Assembly: GCA_964016885.1 (NCBI GenBank)
Contig: OZ024742.1
Coordinates: forward strand, 212,722,001-212,786,000
Length of the DNA stretch: 64,000 nucleotides
Source: Eledone cirrhosa
Taxonomy: Eukaryota
Direction of reading: 5' to 3'
The stretch's first letter is position 1, and each line of letters opens with the position of its first letter. The translations under genes and the position numbers were made by a program. Below, in pieces: positions 8,169 through 56,190 of the stretch. The notes under the pieces were generated by a model that did not search any database, was not told the origin of the DNA, and saw only the letters and a list, made by a program, of their open reading frames with translations.

Positions 8169-8288
8169 AAACTTGTCAGCTGGTGGTCTAGTGCAATGGT
8201 TAGCACAGCAAAATGGTATATAGTAGATGTGGGTTCAAATCCCACGGGCGGTGCTGTACAATTCTTTTCTGTTCCTGGGGCTTATATG
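8169..8288 (+). mobile_element. tRNA-like/tRNA-derived SINE head
   Basis: A box tagtgcaatgg, B box ggttcaaatcc, downstream ttctttt; no canonical anticodon arm. Confidence 0.6.
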
Positions 8289-10177
8289 CCCAACTTATTA
8301 CACTATTTTTCAGCGTCAAAAACATTGAAGCTACTAACTTTATAAACATCCTATTGCTCAATGGTTTTAAAAATAGATTGTTTAAATACATTTTATTACT
8401 TTCAGTCTGAAAGCTCCATAATTTATATCTAATATGACTTTCTGTAGGCAGAAATCAACAGATTGAAATTTAAAATTTCATCATAGGTATAGACACAAGT
8501 ATGGCTGTAAGGTTAAGAAGTTTGCTTCATAATCAAGTGGTACCAGGTTTGATCCAACTTGCTCCTTGGGCAAAGATATTCCACTATAGCCTTGGGTTGA
8601 CCCAAAACCTATTAAGTGGAATTTTGGAAGCAAAACTATGAAGAAGTTTGTTTCTTCCACTCACCCACATATTTCTCTCATCGCCCCACCCCCCTCTCTA
8701 TACACATTATTAGTACAGATTAAAGTTTAAGAAAAGAATTTCTGCTTTCACCCTATATGGGATCTTCTGAAACAGAAAAATTCATCTATAGATGCAGAAG
8801 TAAATATTACTATATATATATATATTCTTATTTAGATTTACTCATGGTATTCTCATTAGAAACCCATTATATACTTGTTTAGCAGTAAATTAATTTACCA
8901 TCTGTCATATACTATCCCCTCTTTTTCTTCCTCTATTACTAATATAAATACTTCAATTTTTCTGATTTTATCCAATTTATCCAAAATCTCTGAAGAAGTG
9001 ACAACTGATTATACATTTGCTATCGAATACTTGCTAACATTATATGATTACGCAAGCAGCGATACATAGGTATTCCGTCTGTTACAGAAACATATGTCAA
9101 TACCTAATAAATTCCTTTTTAAAAAAAGCACTTTCATTTTATATTCATCCTTTCTATATATATATATATGTATATAAGGGATAACAAGTTATCGTTATAA
9201 GTAATCCATCGTATTTAAAATTGAGTGACACAACTTCAAGTGATTAGCAATTTTAAGACAATTTTAAGACCAATGAAACAATTGTTAATACTGTAAACAA
9301 AACCCTTTTTGTACTGTTGACCTTGTTATTCTTCACTCTTTCACTATGTATGTATATATATATTTATACACATATATATATGTGTATGCATGTGTTTATG
9401 TTTACACAGGTATAAAAAAAAAAAAAAGCCTGTTCAGTAGTTTCACCAGCGAAAATAGCTGTTACTGGTAATTATCAAAATTAATAGTTCTTTCTAATAT
9501 TTAATAGTCACCAGCTGAAGGAATATGCATTTACTATACAAATTCTTTCCTAAATATCAAGCAATCCTAATTTCTAGATTACCAACAACATTAAAATTCT
9601 TTTAGAATCTCTAGTTTAGCATTCTAGAAATGTCCTACACATAGATACATGCACACACTCAAACACACACCAGATACACATTAACACATCTGTGTACTTA
9701 AATACAAAGACAAACAAGAATTTCCTATTCTACCTAACTTTCATTTTATGCTAAATATGCCAGTGCCTGAGACATCTAGCTAAAACATTAGACAATGAAA
9801 TATACTTAGCAGAGCACATTAACTGATGACAGGGTTGTGAGTTTTTGGCTAAATATTCTTAAGATTATGATTTACAGATGAAATGCTTTATAATATTTAT
9901 GCTTATACTTTTCAACCACTGTTATTACTCAGTCAGTGTTGTTTGTAAGGTGTCTGTTATTTAAAGCAAGCCAACAACAAAATATAATGGGCACTTAAAA
10001 AAAAAAAAAAAAAAAAAATGAATGTACGTATTGTATATTTAACATACAATAAACATTTTGAAGGCCTTTCGCTATGAATTTAAGGTAGTGATTAACATCA
10101 TACCTAGCTTCAGCAAGTTGGTTATTTCCCTTTGTTTTTGCAAAAGGCCTTCAAAATGTTTTAAAATAAATATACAG

Positions 10178-10506
10178 CATTTTGAAGACCTTGCGCTATT
10201 ATTTTAAAGTAGTGACTATGACACTTCTTTTTTCAACAAACAAAGATAAGCTGACAGATCTGTTTCACACTGTTGGCATTCATCAGAGCTTAGCACTCAC
10301 TGACCTTTGCTGAAAATTATAGAGGCTGGATTCTTATAGAATTCCAGTAATAATCAGGAACTGATTATACAGAGCGATTGCCGGTCCAGCAAAAATTGGA
10401 AAGTAGGATTGGTGCTCTGAAATAGCGATGTATACATGAATATATGTATAGTATATTTGGCAATATACTGTATGCTTAATTAAAAACATTTTGAAGACCT
10501 TGAGCT
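10178..10506 (-). mobile_element. Hammerhead-containing ~309-nt unit (retrozyme / Penelope pseudo-LTR-like), arm 1
   Basis: Terminal 20-nt direct repeat cattttgaagaccttg(c/a)gct at 10178 and 10487; reverse complement of arm 2. Confidence 0.75.
10247..10292 (-). ncRNA. Minimal type I hammerhead ribozyme
   Basis: Minus strand: taagct-CTGATGA-atgc-caaca-gtgt-GAAAC-agatct-GTC-agctta; stem I 6 bp, stem II 4 bp with two G-U, palindromic stem III ACAGAUCUGU; predicted cleavage 3' of GUC at 10253. Confidence 0.85.
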
Positions 10507-10837
10507 GAGCACCAATCCTAATTTTCAATTTTTGCTGGACCAGCGATCGCTCTGTATAATCAGTTCCTGATTATTACTGGAATTCTATAAGAATCCAGCC
10601 TCTATAATTTTCAGCAAAGGTCAGCGAGTGCTAAGCTCTGATGATCACCAACAGTGTGAAACAGATCTGTCAGCTTATCTCCCTTCGTTTGTTGAAAAAA
10701 GAAGTAAGTGACATAGTCACTACTTTAAAATAATAGCGCAAGGCCTTCAAAATGTTTTTAATTAAGCATACAGTATATTGCCAAATATACTATACATATA
10801 TTCATGTATACATTGCTATTTCAGAGCACCAATCCTA

Positions 10838-10839
<2 letters not shown>
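10507..10839 (+). mobile_element. Hammerhead-containing ~317-nt unit (retrozyme / Penelope pseudo-LTR-like), arm 2
   Basis: Terminal direct repeat gagcaccaatcctaat at 10507 and 10824; inverted copy of arm 1 with two 4-nt insertions. Confidence 0.75.
10632..10677 (+). ncRNA. Minimal type I hammerhead ribozyme
   Basis: taagct-CTGATGA-tcac-caaca-gtgt-GAAAC-agatct-GTC-agctta; cleavage predicted after C10671; stem II has a U.U at its base pair. Confidence 0.8.

Positions 10840-10841
<2 letters not shown>

Positions 10842-10921
<80 letters not shown>
10842..10921. repeat. (AG)n microsatellite
   Basis: Direct reading. Confidence 0.95.
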
Positions 10922-11355: not shown

Positions 11356-11887
11356 TTATATTATGTTTTGATTTGTTTGATCATCAATTGGTGTTTTATT
11401 CTTGGATACTTTGGTATTATGTATAACACTGGATGTTGATTGGACATCAAACTGATCAAAAAGTAACACAGATTAGAAACACATTTCATCTAAAAAAAAC
11501 ATGAGGTTAATTTTATTTTGTCAGTTAGAGAAGCCAATGCTCATAATCCCTTCAGGAGATAGGGATTACTGGGTGGGTTTGTATGGTTACTGATTGTTTT
11601 GGACTAGTTATAGGTAAAATATAGACAAAGAAGGAGTTTCAGAGAGATGTAATCCTCAAAGGGAAAGATGAAGAATAGTGTTTAATATGTAGTCAGGAAG
11701 GAGGAGAAATAGCTAGTGCATTAAGTGGGCTTAAAGTTAGTGTCCAGAAGAACAGAGATGACTATATTCAGAAAGAAATAGTATAATATATTGAATAAAA
11801 CTTTACTTATCAAGTAGATGGACATTTTTTATGATGTGACCAAAAAGAAAAAGAATACCAGCACAATATGAATTTGATGGGGAGGAT

Positions 11888-14800
11888 CATCATCATCATC
11901 ATTTTATGTCCGCTTTTCCCTGCTTGCAAGGGTGGGACGGGTCTTATTCAGCACAGCATCTCTCCACTCGTCACGGTCCCTCGTCATCTCCACCGTGAGC
12001 TTCAATGATCTGAGGTCTGTTCTCACCACCTCCGCCCATGTTTTTCGTGGTCTACCTCTACCACGTCTTCCTTCAACTGGCATTTCCTGGCACTTCTTCA
12101 CCCATCGGTCATCCTCCATGCGCATCACATGTCCATACCACCTCAGTCTCCTCTCCCGTACACTACATTCTATCCCTCTGACACAGTTTCTCTCTCAACA
12201 CATTTATGCTGGGTCGTTCACGCACATTTACACTGCACATCCAACGGAGCATGCTTGCCTCATTTCTCTCCAGCCGTCGCATATCCTCTGCGGTTGCTGC
12301 CCATGTCTCACTACCATGCAGCATCGCGCTCCTCACACAGGCATCATACAACCGGCCTTTCGTACGCAGGGAGAAACCCTTCTTCGTCAACAGAGGAAGC
12401 AGCTCCCTAAACTTCTTCCAACCCGTCCTTATTCTAGATACTATGGCCTCGGAACACCCTCCTCCCATGCTAATCTGATCTCCCAGGTACTGGAAGCTAT
12501 CCACCACTTCTATAGCGCCCTCTCGCATTTGAAAAATGTGTCTATCAGTGCGACTTCTACTGTCTAATTTCCCTGTACATCTGCTGCATACATATTTCTC
12601 CCTACCTGTTAGTTTGCCTGCTATACCGCTACATCTCTTGTGTACCCAGGACCTGCATTGTGTGCATTTTATAGAATTTATGCCAGTTCCTTTTCTGCAT
12701 ATCGAACATGGCCATTTCCCTGACGGAATCAGGGTTTTGTCCTCTTTTCTACTCATCAACACTTTTGTCTTAGCTAGATTTACTCTCAGTCCTCTTGCTT
12801 CCAACTGCTGTTTCCATAGCCGGAATTTATTCTCTAGCTCCTCTACTGATTCTGCTATAAGAGCCAGATCGTCAGCATAGAGAAGTTCCCATGGACAGCC
12901 AGTCTTAAACTCCTGTTATGGCTTGGAGGACTATAATGAACAAGAGCGGGCTGAGGACCGAACCCTGATGTACTCCTACTTGTATCTGGAATTCCTCACT
13001 AAACTCCATTCCTACCCTGACTTTACTGAGAGTACCTCTGTACAAAGTTTGCACTGTCCTCACAAGCCATTCCTCAACACCTAGCTTCCTTAGGGACCAC
13101 CAGATGACAGATCGGGGTACCCTATCAAAGGCCTTCTCTAGGTCAACAAAGGCTAAGTATAGTGGCTTATTCTTCTCTAAGAACCTCTCTTGCATTTGTC
13201 TCACCAAGAAGAGGGCATCTGTTGTACTCTTCCCAGGCACAAAACCAAACTGCATCTCATCTAGTTTGACCCTTTCTCTAATTAGTTGTGCTAAAATCCT
13301 TTCTGCCACTTTCATAACCTGATCTATCAGTTTTATACCCCTATAATTGCTCCTCTCCAAAGCATCCCCTTTACCATTGTAGCAATTTATGAGAATACTG
13401 CTGCACCAGTCTTTGGGTATGACACCACCATATATAGCCTGATTGATGATGCGTGCAACCAGTTTAGTGCCTACGTCCCCTGATGCTTTCAGCATCTCAG
13501 CAACTATTCCCGATGGTCTGGCCGCCTTACCATTTTTCATTTCCCTAATCGCCTCTTGGACCCTATATTCGTCAATCTCAATAGCTGGTCCCTCTGTCGG
13601 ATCTACCAAGGGTAATTTCTCTCTCTCCCATTCGTTCTCCACATTCATCAGTCTCTCATAATGACATTTCCAGGCCTCCTTTTTCTGGTCATTCGTGACA
13701 CTAAGTACACCGGCATCATCCCGGACACATTTATCACCAACAACATCCTGATTTGCATTGACACACTGCCTTGCAATGTGGAACACCGCACGCCTCTGAT
13801 CTTCCCGTCGCAGAACATTGGCAAACCTCCTACTCTCTGCCTCCCTGCGTGCTAAGTACACCTGACGTCTAGCTTCTCTCTTAGTGGCTGTATATTCTTC
13901 CCTACTCCCACCCTTTTTCCAAGCCTTCCATGCTAGTCTTTTGTCTCTAATAGCCTTATCTACTGTGCTGTTCCACCACCAGGTCACTCTCTGTCTGGTT
14001 GGAGCTCTGCTCCAGCCACAGGTTTCATCAGTAGCCTGCAGCAAGTTGTCACGTAAGAACTTCCAGTTATTATCTATGTCATACGTCTCTAAATCGTCTT
14101 CTTTTTCGTCATATACATCTTGAAGGGCTTTCCTAAATTTGAATTTTAGTGAAAGGTCTTTTAGCTTCCAGACCTTTCTTCTCCACACCTTCCTATATGT
14201 CTCATTCCATCTCTTGCTTACTGAGATATCACTAACAACTAACCTATGCTGTGGGGTACATTCTTCCCCAGGGTATGCCTTGGTATTAGACACTATCTGC
14301 CTGTCCCGCTGCCTAACTAGCAGGAAGTCAATCTGGCTTATGTGCTCACCAGATTTGTAGGTTATTAGGTGATTGGCAGGTTTCTGGAAGTTTGTGTTGC
14401 AAATAGTCAATGTACTTGCATCACAAAATTCAAGAAGTCTCACTCCTTCTTCATTTCTTGAACCGTAACCGTGCCCACCATGTACCCCAGTGTAACCATC
14501 CTGGAGCTGTCCAACATGACCATTGAAGTCTCCTGCTAGCATAACGATGTCTCCGTCCTCTGTCATTGTGGTTGTTTGCAAAAGTTGCTCATAAAAGCAG
14601 TCTTTCTCATCTTTGCCTAGGCCTGCTTGGGGAGCATAGACCGAGATGATTGTCAGTAGTCTCCTACCTACAACTAATCTAAGCTTAATTATTCGATTAC
14701 TAACTCGAACTACCTCTATTGTCTTATCGATCCATTTCTCAGCCAGGAAAATGCCTACTCCCCCTAACCCATCATCCTTACCTACCCAGAATAGCTTATA

Positions 14801-15040
14801 GCTAAGACGCTTGCCTACGACTAGTCTCGCAGAGGCACCTCTCCATCTCACCTCTTGCACGCAGCACACATCCACTTGCCTTCTCTCCAGCATCTCCGCT
14901 ATTTCAGCAGATCTACCTCTGAGAGTGCCAACATTAAGTGTTGCAACTCTGAGATGCGACGTCTTCATATTTTTCTATGCTGTTTTGTTGCTGTGCTGAT
15001 AAGTTTTTTGGCATTGATACACTGGTTGGATGCCCTTCCT
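11888..15040 (-). mobile_element. Near full-length RTE-clade LINE family A
   Basis: 5' GGAAGGGCATCC motif (~15028-15040), single APE-RT ORF, (gat)n tail; candidate 5-bp TSD aggat at 11883-11887 and 15041-15045. Confidence 0.95.
11904..14968 (-). pseudogene. RTE ORF: AP endonuclease + reverse transcriptase with inserted PHD finger; two 2-bp frameshifts (~12910, ~12180)
   Basis: APE motifs LNVGTL, VQEVRW, YAPQ, GDFNGHVG, SQIDF, PQHRLV; RT motifs QFGF, FVDLEKAFDRV, GVHQGSVLSPLLF, YADDL; frameshifts seen by comparison with 22016-23337. Confidence 0.93.
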
Positions 15041-21789: not shown

Positions 21790-23367
21790 ATAGGCACTAA
21801 ACTGGTTGCACGCATCATCAATCAGGCTATTTATGGTGGTGTCATACCCAAAGACTGGTGCAGCAGTATTCTCATAAATTGCTACAAAGGTAACGGGGAT
21901 GCGCTGGAGAGGAGCAATTATAGTGGTATAAAACTGATGGATCAGGTTATGAAAGTGGCAGAAAGGACAACTAATTAGAGAAAGGGTCAAACTAGATGAG
22001 ACGCAGTTTGGTTTTGTGCCTGGGAAGAGTACAACAGATGCACTCTTCTTGGTGAGACAACTACAAGAGAGGTTTTTAGAGAAAAATAAGCCACTATACT
22101 TAACCTTTGTTGACCTAGAGAAGGCCTTTGATAGGGTTCCCCGATCTGTCATCTGGTGGTCCCTAAGGAAACTAGGTGTTGAGGAATGGCTTGTGAGGAC
22201 AGTGCAAACTTTGTACAGAGGTACTGTCAGTAAAGTCAGAGTAGGAATGGAGTTTAGTGAGGAATTCCAGATACAAGTAGGAGTACATCAAGGTTTGGTC
22301 CTCAGCCCGCTCTTGTTCATTATAGTCCTCCAAGCCATAACAGAGGAGTTTAAGACTGGCTGTCCATGGGAACTTCTCTATGCTGACGATCTGGTTCTTA
22401 TAGCAGAATCAGTAGAGGAGCTAGAGAACAAATTCTGGCTATGGAAACAGCAGTTGGAAGCAAGAGGACTGAGAGTGAACCTAGCTAAGACAAAAGTGTT
22501 GATGAGAAGAAAAGAGGACAAAACTCTGATTCCGTCGGGGAAATGGCCATGTTCGATATGCAGAAAAGGAACTGGCATAAATTCTATAAAATGCACACAA
22601 TGCAGATCCTGGGTACACAAGAGATGTAGCGGGATAGCAGGCAAACTAACAGGTAGGGAGAAATATGTATGCAGTAGATGTACAGGGAAATTAGACAGTA
22701 GAAGTCGCATTGATAGACACATTTTTCAAATGCAGGTGGGTGCTATAGAAGTGGTGGATAGCTACCGGTACCTAGATCAGATTAGCATGGGAGGGGGAGG
22801 GGGTTCCGAGGCCATAGTATCTAGAATAAGGATGGGTTGGAAGAAGTTTAGGGAGCTGCTTCCTCTGCTGACGAAGAAGGGTTTCTCCCTGCGTACGAAA
22901 GGCCGGTTATATGATGTCTGTGTGAGTAGCGCGATGCTGCATGGTAGTAAGACATGGGCAGCAACTGCAGAGGATATGAGGCAAGCATGCTCCATTGGAT
23001 GTGCAATGTCAATGTGCGTGAACGACCCAGCATGAATGTGTTGAGAGAGAAACTGTGTCTGAGAGGGATAGAATGTAGTGTGCGAGAGAGGAGACTGAGG
23101 TGGTATGGACATGTGATGCGCATGGAGGATGACCGATGGGTGAAGAAGTGCCAGGAAATAACAGTTGAAGGAAGACGTGGTAGAGGTAGACCACGAAAAA
23201 CATGGGCGGAGGTGGTGAGAACAGACCTCAGATCACTGAAGCTCACGGTGGAGATGACGAAGGACCGTGACAAGTGGAGAGATGCCGTGGTAAATAAGAC
23301 CTGTCCCACCCTTGCAAGCAGGGAAAAGCGGACGTAAAATGATAATGATGATGATGATGATGATGAT
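21790..23367 (+). mobile_element. RTE family A, 5'-truncated, frameshifted
   Basis: RT motifs and PHD finger; small deletions near 21967 and 22979 relative to the 11888 copy; (gat)n tail. Confidence 0.93.
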
Positions 23368-26688: not shown

Positions 26689-27843
26689 ATCATCATCATC
26701 ATCATCATCAGGTTTAGCGTCCGTGTTCCACGCTTGCATGGGTTTGGACGGGGGTTTTCCCACTTGAGGCAAGAGTGGTTGTCTTGCTCGCATAGGACTG
26801 TCTGGCGGGTTTTCTACAGTTGGATGCCCTTCCTAACACCAACCACATTTACAGTGTGGGGCTGGGAGGTTTTTACCGTGTTGCCTACACGGCCACATTA
26901 CAGCGTGGACTGTCTGGCGGGTTTTCTACAGCTGGATGCCCTTCCTAACACCAACCACATTTACAGTGTGGGGCTGGGAGGTTTTTACCGTGTTGCCTAC
27001 ACGGCCACATTTACAGCGTGGACTGTGTGTTTTTTGTCGTGACACCTACACGATCTCATTTGTTTCGGCCTGGATGTTGTGGGACCAACATAACTTTACA
27101 TTGAAAGGGGCGGTGTGGGTGGGGTGGAGGTGGTGGGACGGGGGTGTGTTTTGATAGAGATGCCTACTGGCTGTAGTAGGTTTTTACTTTGTATTTAGGT
27201 AAGGCGGGTCTTCTCTATTACTGAGTACCGCCAAAGGTCTCGGTCCAGTGACATTGTCTTGGAGAGGTGTAAGCGTGTGAGGTCGGAATTTATCAGCTCG
27301 TCCCATGTTTTTCTGGGTCTGCCTACTCCGTGGCTACCGTCTATCTTTATTGCCCTGCACTTTGTTATACAGCTGTCGTCTTTCATGCGCATCACGTGAC
27401 CGTACCAACGTAGCCTTCTCTCGAGTAAACAACATCTGATCCCTCTTATTTCTAATTTTTTCCTTAGTTCGTTTATGCTTTGCCGTTCACGTATATTACT
27501 ATTGCACATCCAGCGGAGCATGCAAGCTTCGTTCCTCTCTAGTCTGCGTATATCCTCTGCACACAATGCCCAGGTCTCACTGCCATGCAGCATTGCTGTT
27601 CGTATGCAGGCATCGTATAACCTGCCTTTCATTTTTAGGGAGAACCCTCTAGCGGCTAATAGTGGTATAAGCTCTCTGAACTTTTTCCATCCAGTTCTGA
27701 CTCTAGCTACTGTACTTTCAGAGCACCCTCCCCCACTGCTGATTTTGTCACCCAGGTAACGGAAGCTGTCCACTATTTCTATAGAACCCTCTGCGCAGTT
27801 GAAGGAGCTAGTATTTTGTGGGCACTTGCTGCTACTTATTGCA
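26689..27843 (-). mobile_element. RTE family B, 5'-truncated, with two 112-bp UTR units
   Basis: ORF 27195-27773 ending IEKTRLT; UTR unit duplicated ~26795-27024; (gat)n tail. Confidence 0.93.
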
Positions 27844-27929
27844 GGGTCCTCTCAATCCCTTTGGGTATGGTTTCTATGGCTGAAATCCCTTCCTTACACC
27901 AGCCACTTTTTATATATATATATATATAA

Positions 27930-28988: not shown

Positions 28989-31690
28989 TTAATCGACCAG
29001 GTCATGAAGGTCACGGAAAAAGTAATAGCGCAACTAATCAGAGAGAGAATTGACCTTGATGAAATGCAGTTCGGGTTTGTGTCAGGCAAAAGTACCACAG
29101 ACGCTCTTTTCATTGTACGACAACTACAGGAGAAGTACCTAGCTAAAAGTAAACCCCTATACTTAGCTTTTGTTGACTTGGAGAAAGCCTTTGACAGAGT
29201 ACCCCACTCGATTATCTGGTGGGCCCTTAGAAAACTAGGTGTTGACGAATGGCTTGTGAGAGCTATACAAGCCATGTATAAAGAAACAGTCAGCAAGGTT
29301 AGAATTAACAATGAATATAGTGAAGAGTTTAGCGTAAAAGTTGGCGTCCATCAGGGCTCTGTTCTCAGCCCCCTACTATTTATTATTGCCCTTCAGGCTA
29401 TAACAGAGGAGTTCAAGACCGGCTGCCCATGGGAACTCCTATACGCAGATGACCTAACACTCATAGCTGAATCAATGGCCGAGCTAGAGAAGAAATTCCA
29501 AATATGGAAGCACGGCCTAGAATCAAAAGGCCTTAAAATTAACCTGGCTAAGACCAAAGTTTTAGTTTGTAGGAAAGAAAATAAGGCGGCGGTCCCTTCC
29601 GGGAAGTGGCCATGCTCAGTGTGTAGGAAAGGCGTAGGTAGAAACTCCATTTTGTGTCCGAAATGCAAAGTATGGGTGCATAAAAGATGTAGTGGGATCA
29701 CAGGTAGGCCAACTAAGAACATAGATTTCACATGTGGCCGGTGCTCTGGTGCAATAAGTAGCAGCAAGTGCCCACAAAATACTAGCTCTTTCAACTGCGC
29801 AGAGGGCTCTATAGAAATAGTGGACAGCTTCCGTTACCTGGGTGACAAAATCAGCAGTGGGGGAGGGTGCTCTGAAAGTACAGTAGCTAGAGTCAGAACT
29901 GGATGAAAAAAGTTCAGAGAGCTTATACCACTATTAGCCGCTAAAGGGTTCTCCCTAAAAATGAAAGGCAGGTTGTATGATGCCTGCATACGAACAGCAA
30001 TGTTGCATGGCAGTGAGACCTGGGCATTGTGTGCAGAGGATATACGCAGACTAGAGAGGAACGAAGCTTGCATGCTCCGCTGGATGTGTAATAGTAATAT
30101 ACGTGAACGGCAAAGCATAAACGAACTAAGGAAAAAATTAGAAATAAGAGGGATCAGATGTTGTTTACTCGAGAGAAGGCTACGTTGGTATGGACACGTG
30201 ATGCGCATGAAAGACGATAGCTGTATAACAAAGTGCAGGGCAATAAAGATAGACGGTAGCCACGGAGTAGGCAGACCTAGAAAAACCTGGGACGAGCTGA
30301 TAAATTCCGACCTCACACACTTACACCTCTCCAAGACAATGTCACTGGACCGAGACCTTTGGCGGTACTCAGTAATAGAGAAGACCCGCCTTACCTAAAT
30401 ACATAGTAAAACCTACTACAGTCAGTAGGCATCTCTAACAAAATACACCCCCATCCCACCACCCCCACACCATCCACACCGCCCCCTTCTATGTAAAGTT
30501 ATGTTGGTGCCACACCATCCAGGCCGAAACAAATGAGATCATGTAGGTGTCACGACAAAAAAAACACAGTCCACGCTGTAATGTGGCCGTGTAGGCAACA
30601 CGGTAAAAACCTCCCAGCCCCACACTGTAAATGTGGTTGGTGTTAGGAAGGGCATCCAGCTGTAGAAAACCCGCCAGACAGTCCACGCTGTAATGTGGCC
30701 GTGTAGGCAACACGGTAAAAACCTCCCAGCCCCACACTGTAAATGTGGTTGGTGTTAGGAAGGGCATCCAGCTGTAGAAAACCCGCCAGACAGTCCACGC
30801 TGTAATGTGGCCGTGTAGGCAACACGGTAAAAACCTCCCAGCCCCACACTGTAAATGTGGTTGGTGTTAGGAAGGGCATCCAGCTGTAGAAAACCCGCCA
30901 GACAGTCCACGCTGTAATGTGGCCGTGTAGGCAACACGGTAAAAACCTCCCAGCCCCACACTGTAAATGTGGTTGGTGTTAGGAAGGGCATCCAGCTGTA
31001 GAAAACCCGCCAGACAGTCCACGCTGTAATGTGGCCGTGTAGGCAACACGGTAAAAACCTCCCAGCCCCACACTGTAAATGTGGTTGGTGTTAGGAAGGG
31101 CATCCAGCTGTAGAAAACCCGCCAGACAGTCCACGCTGTAATGTGGCCGTGTAGGCAACACAGTAAAAACCTCCCAGCCCCACACTGTAAATGTGGTTGG
31201 TGTTAGGAAGGGCATCCAGCTGTAGAAAACCCGCCAGACAGTCCACGCTGTAATGTGGCCGTGTAGGCAACACGGTAAAAACCTCCCAGCCCCACACTGT
31301 AAATGTGGTTGGTGTTAGGAAGGGCATCCAGCTGTAGAAAACCCGCCAGACAGTCCACGCTGTAATGTGGCCGTGTAGGCAACACGGTAAAAACCTCCCA
31401 GCCCCACACTGTAAATGTGGTTGGTGTTAGGAAGGGCATCCAGCTGTAGAAAACCCGCCAGACAGTCCACGCTGTAATGTGGCCGTGTAGGCAACACGGT
31501 AAAAACCTCCCAGACCCACACTGTAAATGTGGTTGGTGTTAGGAAGGGCATCCAGCTGTAGAAAACCCGCCAGACAGTCCTATGCGAACAAGACAATCAC
31601 TCTTGCCTCAAGTGGGAAAACCCCCGTCCAAACCCATGCAAGCGTGGAACACGGACGTTAAACGTTGATGATGATGATGATGATGATGAT
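28989..31690 (+). mobile_element. RTE family B, 5'-truncated, RT+PHD ORF with one premature stop; 3' UTR with 9 tandem units
   Basis: ORF 29004-30398 in one frame broken by TGA (W to stop) at 29904-29906; (gat)n tail ~31667-31690. Confidence 0.95.
30567..31574 (+). repeat. Tandem array of 9 x 112 bp
   Basis: Units start at 30567, 30679, 30791, 30903, 31015, 31127, 31239, 31351, 31463; only two substitutions seen (~31162, ~31514). Confidence 0.97.
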
Positions 31691-42290: not shown

Positions 42291-42491
42291 CTGTTACAGG
42301 TGCCTCAATGTCAATCATAGTTTTTTCTTGCCGCAGCAATGCAGCTCCTTCATTAATAATCCTTAATGCTACATCCTCTGTCACTCTACCTTCTAACACG
42401 AAATGCTGCTTTAACACATCAGGTTTAGGTTTGCCCCGAGGATCAAACACCTCTAGCGTTTGTAATCGATGACTTGGTGGAAAGGGTACAC
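42291..42491 (-). CDS. PPP3CA: Internal coding exon of calcineurin A (Ser/Thr phosphatase 2B catalytic subunit), equivalent to vertebrate exon 2
   Basis: Encodes [66 protein letters not shown], recognisably calcineurin A N-terminal region; acceptor tttctag| and donor |gtaaga; 201 nt, phase 1-1. Symbol denotes the family (CanA/PPP3C), not a specific paralog. Confidence 0.95.
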
Positions 42492-53446: not shown

Positions 53447-54652
53447 ATCATCATCATCAGGTTTAGCGTCCGTGTTCCACGCTTGCATGGGTTTGGACGG
53501 GGGTTTTCCCACTTGAGGCAAGAGTGGTTGTCTTGCTCGCATAGGACTGTCTGGCGGGTTTTCTACAGCTGGATGCCCTTCCTAACACCAACCACATTTA
53601 CAGTGTGGGGCTGGGAGGTTTTTACCGTGTTGCCTACACGGCCACATTTACAGCGTGGACTGTGTGTTTTTTTGTCGTGACACCTACACGATCTCATTTG
53701 TTTCGGCCTGGATGTTGTGGGACCAACATAACTTTACATTGAAAGGGGCGGTGTGGATGGGGTGGAGGGACGGGAGGTGATGCCTACTGACTGTAGTAGG
53801 TTTTTACTTTGTATTTAGGTAAGGCGGGTCTTCTCTATTACTGAGTACCGCCAAAGGTCTCGGTCCAGTGACATTGTCTTGGAGAGGTGTAAGCGTGTGA
53901 GGTCGGAATTTATCAGCTCGTCCCAGGTTTTTCTGGGTCTGCCTACTCCGTGGCTACTGTCTATCTTTATTGCCCTGCACTTTGTTATATAGCTGTCGTC
54001 TTTCATGCGCATCACGTAACCGTACCAACGTAACCTTCTCTCAAGTAAACAACATCTGATCCCTCTTATTTCTAATTTTTTCCTTAGTTCGTTTATGCTT
54101 AGCCGTTCACGTATATTACTATTGCACATCCAGCGGAGCATGCAAGCTTCGTTCCTCTCTAGTCTGCGTATATCCTCTGCACACAATGCCCAGGTCTCAC
54201 TGCCATGCAGCATTGCTGTTCGTATGCAGGCATCGTATAACCTGCCTTTCATTTTTAGGGAGAACCCTCTAGCGGCTAATAGTGGTATAAGCTCTCTGAA
54301 CCTTTTCCATCCAGTTCTGACTCTAGCTACTGTACTTTCAGAGCACCCTCCCCCACTGCTGATTTTGTCACCCAGGTAACGGAAGCTGTCCACTATTTCT
54401 ATAGAACCCTCTGCGCAATTGAAAGAGCTAGTATTTAGTGGGCACTTGCTGCTACTTATTGCACCAGAGCACCGGCCACATGTAAAATCTATGTTCTTAG
54501 TTAGCTTACCTGTGATCCCACTACATCTTTTATGCACCCATACTTTGCATTGGGGACATAAAATGGAGTTTCTACCTACGCCTTTCCTACACACTGAGCA
54601 TGGCCATTTCCCGGAAGGGACCGCCGCCTTATTTTCTTTCCTACAAACTAGA
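53447..54652 (-). mobile_element. RTE family B, 5'-truncated (one UTR unit)
   Basis: Open ORF 53815-54594 with PHD finger ending IEKTRLT; UTR and (gat)n tail. Confidence 0.93.
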
Positions 54653-56190
54653 ACAATATATAACTAAAAACCCTTAAACATGCTACAAAATCTCTCATGG
54701 TGACATCATATGCATAACAGTACCAAATCTGCATTCCAAAGACCAGGTTTCCTCTTTAGGGTCAACAAACACTGCAGCTCTGATCACTTACCAACTTTCA
54801 ATTGTGACCCACACTGAAGTACTGTTTATATATTTAAATTGGGGCTGCTGCAACATACAGACATCCTAGGTTGTATTCAAAAGAAAACTGTTCATCTGAT
54901 TAGCAAGGACTCACTGACCAACAAGCTACACACACTACCTCACATATGCATTGGTTTCTGCCCTTCTACTTTTACCTCAACTACACAGATCTCTGCTCCT
55001 CAGAATTATCTGACATCATACCTGTTCCAATACAGTTCATCTGTTTTGGCCATCCCCTTTGTTTCTAAGATAACACAAAATGCTTGTCCAATCATTCCTC
55101 TTCAGAACTAGTCCTTTTGATTCCATGTCCATTCAATTTTTACCTACATGCATTGACCAGCAACTTTAAACCAATTATCAGTTGCATTGATCCTATAAGT
55201 CTTACAAAAGGTTGTGTGCTGCCCCCCCCCCCCCCCCCCCCCTCTTATTTTTTTTCACTGAATTCAGTAACAGTATTGTGATTGTGGTAAGATATTGACA
55301 TAATTACGTAAAATAAACCTTTTATTTTTAGCAGATGTACCCTTGGAAGTTCAGTTTTGAAACAGAAGCTGCACATAATGTTAAGAAGTGTCCATTTTAT
55401 TTTCTGTTATCTCAAATGTCATTATTCTTCAAGTGGATGTATTAGCTACACTACACTATGTTGTCAAACAGAATGGCACCTCTCATGCTGTGATATTTGA
55501 TAGAATAGTTTCATTTCAAATATGATAACCATCGTCACAAAGGTAAAGGATAGTTTATCAAGAGTTCTTAAATATTGTTTATTATATGTAAATGGCAGCC
55601 AGATAAAGAAAAGCAGCCATGACAAAGTAGGTCTCCACAGCAATTATACAAGTAAGAGCTGGCAGGACTGGGTTGAAAGATGAGAAATACTGCAAATACA
55701 TTTTAATAATAAATTAAAGTAGTGATTGAAGCCTTTTCTTATATTAGGTGTCATAGTCTCTCTTGGAAAAAACATTGTAGTTATGAGTTTCAATATAATA
55801 AAGAAATGACATTTTCTAATACTGGCATCAATTCATTTCTTAGGTTACAACAAAAACAACTTGACAAAAGATTTTATTGAAGGTCTATTCCACAGTTAAT
55901 ACAAAAGCTTTCTTTACTAATACATGAATGAAATGCTTCATTGATTGATTATATTTACTTCTAACCTTTTGGAATAAGTCTGATTGACTTTATCAATTCA
56001 GTATTAGTGACTTGTAAGTGATGTGTTATAAAAATAACTGACACACCTACTACAAGGCTATTAAGATTATAGGATGAGCAGGTCTTTTTTTTTTATAGGA
56101 TTAAGCAAAACAAAAACAAAAAGATTCACAATCAGAGATTTCATAGTAAATGATGTTCAAATACATTTTTTTAATGTTTTATTCAGGAAA

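Follow-up and report, generated by a model that had tools for sequence, protein, structure and literature searches.

Genomic context and layout of the insertion

The window, that is, the whole stretch of 64,000 nucleotides of Eledone cirrhosa DNA that was analysed, contains an insertion of a ribozyme-bearing repeat in which an inverted 5′ arm and a direct arm lie head-to-head. The features of the locus, in window coordinates, were the following:

10178..10839, both strands: whole insertion, inverted (−) 5′ arm and direct (+) arm, head-to-head
10178..10506, minus strand: inverted arm, with unit positions 229 to the end (10506-10404), then 1-248 (10417-10178)
10507..10839, plus strand: direct arm made of one 317-nt unit and a further 16 nt, up to the long 3′ end
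10806..10839, plus strand: 34-nt tail between the short and long 3′ ends of the family
10840..10921, plus strand: right flank, three AT bases and then (AG)40
10018..10177: older-subfamily remnant of the same superfamily, with a minus arm and a deleted plus arm
10704..10824, plus strand: possible retained spliceosomal intron (a hint only), from a GTAAGT donor-like to a TTTCAG acceptor-like motif
10626..10681, plus strand: hammerhead 1, type I, canonical geometry
10626-10631, plus strand: closing helix and 3-nt bulge of hammerhead 1
10632-10637 with 10672-10677, plus strand: stem I of hammerhead 1
10645-10657, plus strand: stem II region of hammerhead 1, with U.U at its base
10658-10660, plus strand: GAA of hammerhead 1
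10661-10670, plus strand: palindromic stem III of hammerhead 1
10243..10298, minus strand: hammerhead 2, laid out as hammerhead 1, with two G-U pairs in stem II
42291..42470, minus strand: calcineurin A-like exon (upper bound approximate)

The two arms meet at 10506/10507. Two inverted copies of a unit had been predicted here, and the inverted arrangement was recovered, while the copies proved unequal, as the direct arm holds one unit plus 16 nt and the inverted arm begins at unit position 229, continues across the unit junction and ends at position 248. The left end of the insertion lacks the usual short 3′ end and adjoins an older relative, whose minus arm (10018-10116) does end at the short 3′ end. 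No hammerhead core was found in this remnant (10018-10177), whose relatives carry a U3-A8 hammerhead. The right end adjoins (AG)40, while at most loci the same end adjoins (TA)n. Moreover, the donor-like and acceptor-like motifs of the putative intron were present across subfamilies; no exactly spliced genomic copy of the unit was found, and none among the 15 joints inspected out of 32. The window copy was 93-96% identical to its nearest sister copies and is, judging from these sequence comparisons, one young copy among thousands.

Regarding the host gene, the exon at 42291-42470 was assumed to be calcineurin A-like from its PP2B motifs, with Pfam returning no family for this single exon. The next calcineurin A-like exon appeared ~18.5 kb left of the window, placing the insertion inside an intron of ~61 kb. 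Further calcineurin A-like exons were seen about 18.5, 53, 155 and 169 kb left of the window, in a gene for a calcineurin A-like catalytic subunit on the minus strand with very long introns (L179, L183, L193 and L194). Among the other features of the window, a tRNA-like Rfam match to a partial model (8189-8245, plus strand, 32.6 bits) is probably a SINE head or a pseudogene. LINE copies, presumably RTE-like, were located at about 11886-14974 (minus strand) and near 21953-23035, 27195-27851, 28989-30398 and 53815-54663, the longest LINE frame in the window having endonuclease and RT domains. Furthermore, a 112-nt tandem array was found at 30566-31580 (9.1 copies) and 26795-27026 (2.1 copies); its unit takes in a portion of a repeat that is scattered over the window and also occurs next to LINE fragments.

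Hammerhead motifs in the window

Two complete hammerhead cores with a 6-bp stem I and a palindromic stem III of 10 nt were found, as the original prediction had claimed, at 10638-10671 (plus strand) and 10286-10253 (minus strand). In hammerhead 1, the core spans 10638-10644 and GAAA 10658-10661, with cleavage predicted after C10671, while in hammerhead 2 the core runs from 10286 and cleavage is predicted after C10253. Both motifs present the elements that define type I (CUGANGA, GAAA, NUH and three helices, with helix I open). The usual G10.1-C11.1 pair of stem II is absent from them, its place being taken by U.U in the plus copy and by A-U in the minus copy. No further match to the hammerhead descriptor appeared in the 64-kb window, and a stricter descriptor that still found both real motifs matched none of 200 first-order Markov-shuffled windows. 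The Rfam hammerhead model, suggested earlier as a check, gave no match over the window motifs, either at the gathering score or at E≤10. Weak Rfam matches to miRNA families at the locus were attributed to the inverted repeat and set aside.

The unit folded better than its shuffles in both the linear and the circular form (z-scores of −4.5 and −4.7, respectively, with 100 shuffles each), and the five hairpin pairs that had been named all exist in the plus arm. The isolated hammerheads folded no better than shuffles. In particular, the monomer folds were weak (−2.5 and −1.7 kcal/mol), and the palindrome duplex reached −13.6 kcal/mol. These marginal monomer folds, together with the good pairing of the palindromes of two copies, point to putative cleavage as a dimer through the palindromic helix III. 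The two window ribozymes do not form the pair that had been proposed, since they lie on opposite strands, where no cis-dimer is possible, and with one hammerhead per strand the locus cannot release a unit-length monomer or circle. Moreover, the two arms of a transcript crossing the locus are predicted to fold into one duplex (−432 kcal/mol), so that the transcript would be a long double-stranded RNA in which either ribozyme is predicted to be trapped. The window locus is probably inert, a dead end.

A dispersed family of non-coding units

The unit is 317 nt long, with 35% GC and a longest stop-free frame of 46 aa. The expectation of a non-coding unit was thus borne out, and its length corrected from ~310 nt. 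In the genome of the species (3.0 Gb), exact matches numbered 2,583 for a scaffold motif, 2,449 for a tail motif and 259 for the core variant of the window, all of them being lower bounds, while reversed-pattern controls gave 0. The copies belong to a dispersed superfamily with several subfamilies, through whose evolution the unit junction stayed intact; three sequencing runs (one sample, as contigs) served only to spot subfamilies. The existence of other copies with a conserved core, on which the earlier proposal depended, was therefore observed, and so were the copy number and the tandems for which a genome search had been advised, while the RT/GIY-YIG open reading frame expected from the same search was not joined to the unit in any of the loci read. 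Two same-strand hammerheads one unit apart were present in only 5 of 53 distinct loci, the window locus not being among them. As a side observation, a 31-nt piece of the unit has been amplified into a local minisatellite (G000:C4:7447729-7449467).

The family shows the traits of non-LTR retrozymes, being non-coding, multicopy, within 170-400 nt and below 45-50% GC. It is classified here as a new non-LTR retrozyme family of an already known kind, which agrees with the proposed non-autonomous, ribozyme-bearing retroelement family, as thousands of copies of a unit with no open reading frame were found. The family may already stand in a repeat library. Literature listings on hammerheads or retrozymes in octopus or cephalopods, and on retrozymes with a tail and inversion, contained no description of it, and the portion consulted of the Octopus vulgaris repeat annotation (PMC13282606) makes no mention of a hammerhead or ribozyme.

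Conservation and geometry of the ribozyme

The conservation of the ribozyme was assessed in 98 of the first 100 scaffold matches listed, a sample chosen by a motif outside the ribozyme. Among them, 81 parsed as hammerheads and 17 did not, positions 3 and 8 being left unscored during parsing. Conservation at positions fixed by the search patterns, including helix III and the 3-8 pair where these were part of the pattern, is circular and was excluded as evidence. Within the 81 parsed motifs, the core pair was C3-G8 in 52, U3-A8 in 19 and mismatched in 10. In helix II, whole pairs were swapped between subfamilies, with pair 10.2-11.2 being C-G (37), U-A (28) or U-G (8) and pair 10.3-11.3 being G-C (37) or A-U (32), while pair 10.1-11.1 was mostly A-U (35) or U.U (20), with G10.1-C11.1 in only 8. 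The rarity of the latter pair predicts, on our assumption about its role, that the activity of the hammerhead may be weak.

When the ribozyme was removed from 74 units, the tree built from them, which left out copies with a mismatched pair or truncated flanks, needed the core pair to change twice, and a single change was permitted by none of 200 bootstrap trees, in a bootstrap that had not fully settled. The tree thus needs at least two switches between C3-G8 and U3-A8. Furthermore, the covariation score of stems I and II in 50 aligned motifs was 0.450, and slid partners reached 0.171 at most; in the same 50 motifs, the measures based on numbers of pairs or of pair types did not beat shuffles (320 and 173 of 500, respectively). 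These covariation counts rest on few events at the subfamily level, the copies not being independent. Taken across the genomic copies, the compensatory changes show that the shape of the ribozyme was kept and its fold was under selection in the family.

The original prediction had described the hammerheads as minimal, which the geometry contradicts. Helix I (6 bp) runs on past a URY bulge opposite a U into a further helix, and helix II has about 4 bp. Among the 81 parsed motifs, the URY bulge was present in 64, the opposite U in 71, a 3-bp closing helix in 60 and the YA..A of loop 2 in 69; the URY bulge, the opposite U and the loop 2 bases are presumably those of the tertiary contacts of canonical hammerheads. 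None of the features of the minimal hammerheads of Penelope-like elements (PLEs) was characteristic of the family, namely the extra base after A9, the long helix II, the short helix I and the conserved G10.1-C11.1. The canonical type I geometry, as it is defined in PMC4209133, agrees with both the helix sizes and the internal loop conserved in helix I.

Insertion scars

The architecture of the insertions was determined from 60 fetched loci, of which 7 were duplicates, leaving 53 distinct loci. An inverted arm was found in 32 of them, always head-to-head (32/32), with an inversion point that varied by locus, while 21 were not inverted. Of the 85 3′ ends, 41 were long, 34 short and 10 of other kinds. 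The short end lies 34 nt before the long one, both being fixed at 134 and 168 nt downstream of the predicted cleavage site, and 22 of the 32 inverted loci had one end of each class. Moreover, (AT)4 adjoined 37 of the 41 long and 30 of the 34 short ends (67 of the 75 canonical ends together). Partial tandems and 5′ truncation were also present, with 5′ ends spread over the whole unit. The ends lie in (TA)n, where a target-site duplication cannot be read.

A layout of partial tandems and an inverted, 5′-truncated copy, with a tail of 30-40 bp on one end, has been described for PLEs (PMC8557442; 10.1101/2021.04.23.441226), in which the tail is the stretch between two internal start sites of reverse transcription and the target is AT-rich (Frangieh et al. 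2024, PMC11167929). The copies of the present family carry this signature (partial tandems, inversion, tail and (TA)n), in line with the Penelope link put forward in the original prediction. The unit was very probably copied in by PLE machinery, i.e. as a non-autonomous passenger mobilised by PLEs.

In addition, PLE-type elements of different kinds were seen to pile up at (TA)n tracts (L380, L382, L383, L038 and L040), which suggests nested insertion hot spots. A tail-like fragment standing alone between (TA)n tracts (L109:3309-3385) is possibly a minimal insertion of a related subfamily.

PLE families in the genome and other hammerhead repeats

Three PLE or PLE-like families were examined in the genome, in which further PLE families exist. 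The first is a young family (L228-L239; L228:5518-8217) with open frames of 860-900 aa that encode RT together with GIY-YIG at the C-terminus, as confirmed by Pfam. It presents a tandem period of about 3.1 kb, inverted copies, a (TA)n target, two 3′ ends, a tail of ~46 nt and a hammerhead-like motif of the minimal type, in which U or C occupies position 4. The second, PLE-like family (L380-L391; L380:3844-7140) has frames of about 1000-1200 aa, in which an Asn-rich insert is present and a Cys linker precedes a GIY-YIG-like end; its target is (TA)n, with two or three 3′ ends as alternatives. The third, also PLE-like (L091-L110), has a GIY-YIG-like C-terminus and is very abundant (59,140 first-look candidates); its 3′ region yielded no confirmed hammerhead that was both complete and canonical.

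The (TA)n target and the two 3′ ends of the first two families match the scars of the unit, but the unit showed no sequence similarity to any of these three families, and no autonomous partner was found among them. The second of them lay close to the unit in 4 of 12 regions, parted from it by (TA)n and other repeats, and was found near 14 of 120 unit loci (some overlapping) compared to 3 matches in a 200-kb control. This closeness was read as a shared target. An RT/GIY-YIG open reading frame joined to the unit was absent from all the loci read, and a pattern search for other hammerheads yielded separate repeat families, with no relative linked to an open reading frame.

Among these separate families, an unrelated hammerhead-like repeat of about 425-470 nt (L062-L089, e.g. 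L069, L071 and L080) carries a ATGCAAAT octamer 88 nt upstream of the core and occurs in tandem arrays and in inversions, its two 3′ ends lying about 55-60 nt apart and its targets being (TA)n. The ATGCAAAT octamer is, in our assumption, reminiscent of the snRNA-type promoters of amphibian satellite 2. As this second, unrelated hammerhead repeat has the same scars with a longer tail, the PLE link is not peculiar to one family. At least four more hammerhead-like families were noticed (L061, L075 and L076; L068, L077 and L227; L074 and L106; L099), some of them with the extra base and the G10.1-C11.1 of PLE minimal hammerheads.

Proposed template and mechanism of mobilisation

The nature of the copied template was addressed through the arms with a proper 3′ end, a total of 220 in 166 distinct loci. 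Of these, 104 exceeded one unit, and the longest reached 941 nt in unit coordinates. Only 7 of the 5′ ends fell near the cleavage site, compared to 9 expected, with BLAST breaks in divergent subfamilies adding noise to this count. A cleaved linear monomer was rejected as the template, as the 5′ ends show no pile-up at the cleavage site. Since the arms run through this site, the template would be either a circle or an uncleaved multimer, between which genomic DNA cannot distinguish.

Mobilisation by PLEs with a circular template is held here at even chances. The circle is modestly favoured because internal initiation needs no RNA 3′ end and tandem sources are scarce (5/53), and also because of the selection on the ribozyme and of the circles that similar repeats yield in coral, mussel and axolotl. 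Against it count the use of unprocessed RNA by the anole PLE in vitro, where hammerhead mutants had no effect on insertion and unprocessed RNA was the main substrate (PMC11167929), and the behaviour of the Xenopus retrozymes, for which only one of nine dimers cleaved in vitro (10.64898/2026.07.22.740005), eight not doing so.

With a circle as the template, the rare loci with two same-strand hammerheads would be transcribed, and the RNA would self-cleave to unit length, probably as dimers through the palindromic helix III. A host ligase would then close the unit-length RNA into a circle. The PLE protein (RT and GIY-YIG endonuclease) would nick (TA)n DNA, and reverse transcription would begin at two internal sites with no need of an RNA 3′ end, leaving the tail on one arm only. 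The RT would travel round the template over a length of about 0.1 to 3 units, and two cDNAs would join head-to-head. The proposal in its full form, namely that a PLE RT with two internal starts rolls around a ribozyme-made circle, recognises it by RNA shape with no shared sequence, serves at least two unrelated canonical-hammerhead families and leaves the ribozyme selected in the passenger, is offered as tentative, with the chances somewhat against all its parts holding together.

The same unit and the same PLE machinery might instead take as template a linear RNA, read through from tandem loci and left uncleaved, with the hammerhead being selected for another step, such as release from host transcripts or late processing. 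Every insertion scar fits this explanation equally well; in the anole element, unprocessed RNA is dominant and no RNA-seq reads end at the cleavage site (PMC11167929), and the same partial tandems arise from PLEs that lack canonical hammerheads (PMC8557442; 10.1101/2021.04.23.441226). However, the tandem source loci it requires are scarce, with two same-strand hammerheads in 5 of 53 loci, and yet the arms reach 941 nt, while canonical-type hammerhead repeats of similar size produce abundant circles in coral, mussel and axolotl (PMC7229834). About a one-in-three prospect is accordingly given to the linear template.

The copies could also be 5′-truncated pseudo-LTRs of an autonomous PLE missed by the partner search, which spanned three PLE families. 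The 134-168 nt between the ribozyme and the 3′ ends downstream of it are near the spacing in the young PLE family of this genome and also close to that of the anole element (PMC11167929), and a possible retained intron would be a PLE trait (PMC8557442). Nevertheless, in the 30 tail matches read, the tail was followed by the next unit or by (TA)n and never by an open reading frame, and no 5′ flank joined to the unit was shared across the 53 loci. Moreover, several subfamilies evolved with the unit junction intact, and the hammerhead of the unit is canonical, compared to the minimal type of the intact PLE. The pseudo-LTR of a protein-coding element that had been suggested found no support, no PLE open reading frame being joined to the unit in the loci read, and this explanation is considered unlikely.

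A ribozyme or hairpin co-opted by the host to regulate calcineurin A pre-mRNA would accord with the position of the insertion within an intron of the gene and with the predicted hairpin of −432 kcal/mol in the pre-mRNA, but it is highly improbable given that the insertion is one young copy of thousands (93-96% identical to its nearest sisters), with the sense hammerhead predicted to be buried in the duplex. Finally, a MITE or fold-back DNA transposon with a chance hammerhead in its inverted repeats, which the window locus resembles in being a long inverted repeat, is next to implausible, as the inversion point varies, 21 of 53 loci are not inverted, the 5′ ends fall all along the unit and the tail sets the two outer ends apart.

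Comparison with known systems

PLEs have been called a strong candidate for moving animal retrozymes (PMC7229834), and non-LTR retrozymes have been put forward as non-autonomous derivatives of PLEs (Li, Clavereau and Pollet 2026, 10.64898/2026.07.22.740005), on the grounds of co-occurrence and pLTR homology, with limited evidence on the life cycle. In the portions of these sources consulted, the word ‘tail’ is absent from the latter, and both ‘tail’ and ‘inverted’ from the main text of the former. The family described here resembles the animal non-LTR retrozymes of these two sources (Cervera and de la Pena 2020 for PMC7229834) in its non-coding unit within 170-400 nt and low GC, its canonical-type type I hammerhead, its thousands of copies and its tandem units; helix II of the axolotl Amex2 motif in the retrozyme literature likewise has a U.U mismatch at its base. 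In contrast, the present family has mostly partial tandems or inversions of about 1-3 units rather than long arrays, the two-site 3′ ends, tail and (TA)n target set it apart from retrozymes as described in the portions consulted, and its helix III is longer (8-12 nt) and palindromic or nearly so. Linear and circular monomer RNAs are among the defining traits of non-LTR retrozymes, and the present analysis covered genomic DNA.

Compared to the pLTRs of EN+ PLEs (Craig et al. 2021, PMC8557442; PMC11167929), the insertions are alike in their partial tandems, the inverted 5′-truncated arm, the tail of 30-40 nt on one end, the AT-rich or (TA)n targets, the hammerhead upstream of the 3′ ends and possibly a retained intron. 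They differ in that the unit has no RT/GIY-YIG open reading frame and matches none of the three examined PLE families in sequence. The hammerheads share with the PLE minimal ones their type I topology and a palindromic helix III suited to dimers (PMC4209133), and pairs on opposite strands 100-700 bp apart as well as the U3-A8 variant were already reported in Schistosoma by the same source. Unlike the minimal ones, they lack the extra base between 9 and 10.1 and the conserved G10.1-C11.1, and their helix II has 3-4 bp (compared to 7-8), while helix I has 6 bp and an internal loop that is conserved. The non-autonomous PLE derivatives of Chlamys, e.g. MRC1 (PMC8557442), are likewise protein-free passengers of PLEs and form pLTRs as well as insertions in head-to-tail order; however, they resemble their autonomous partner at the 3′ end and mostly lack canonical hammerheads, while the ribozyme of the present unit is under selection.

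The family bears on which enzyme moves animal retrozymes. As PLEs with open frames are present in the same genome, the published in vitro PLE assay could test the link directly. The compensatory changes indicate that the ribozyme fold mattered during the spread of the family, which bears on the role of hammerheads in PLE-type transposition, and the tail, inversion and target add evidence at the level of the insertion for the mobilisation of a canonical-hammerhead unit by PLEs.
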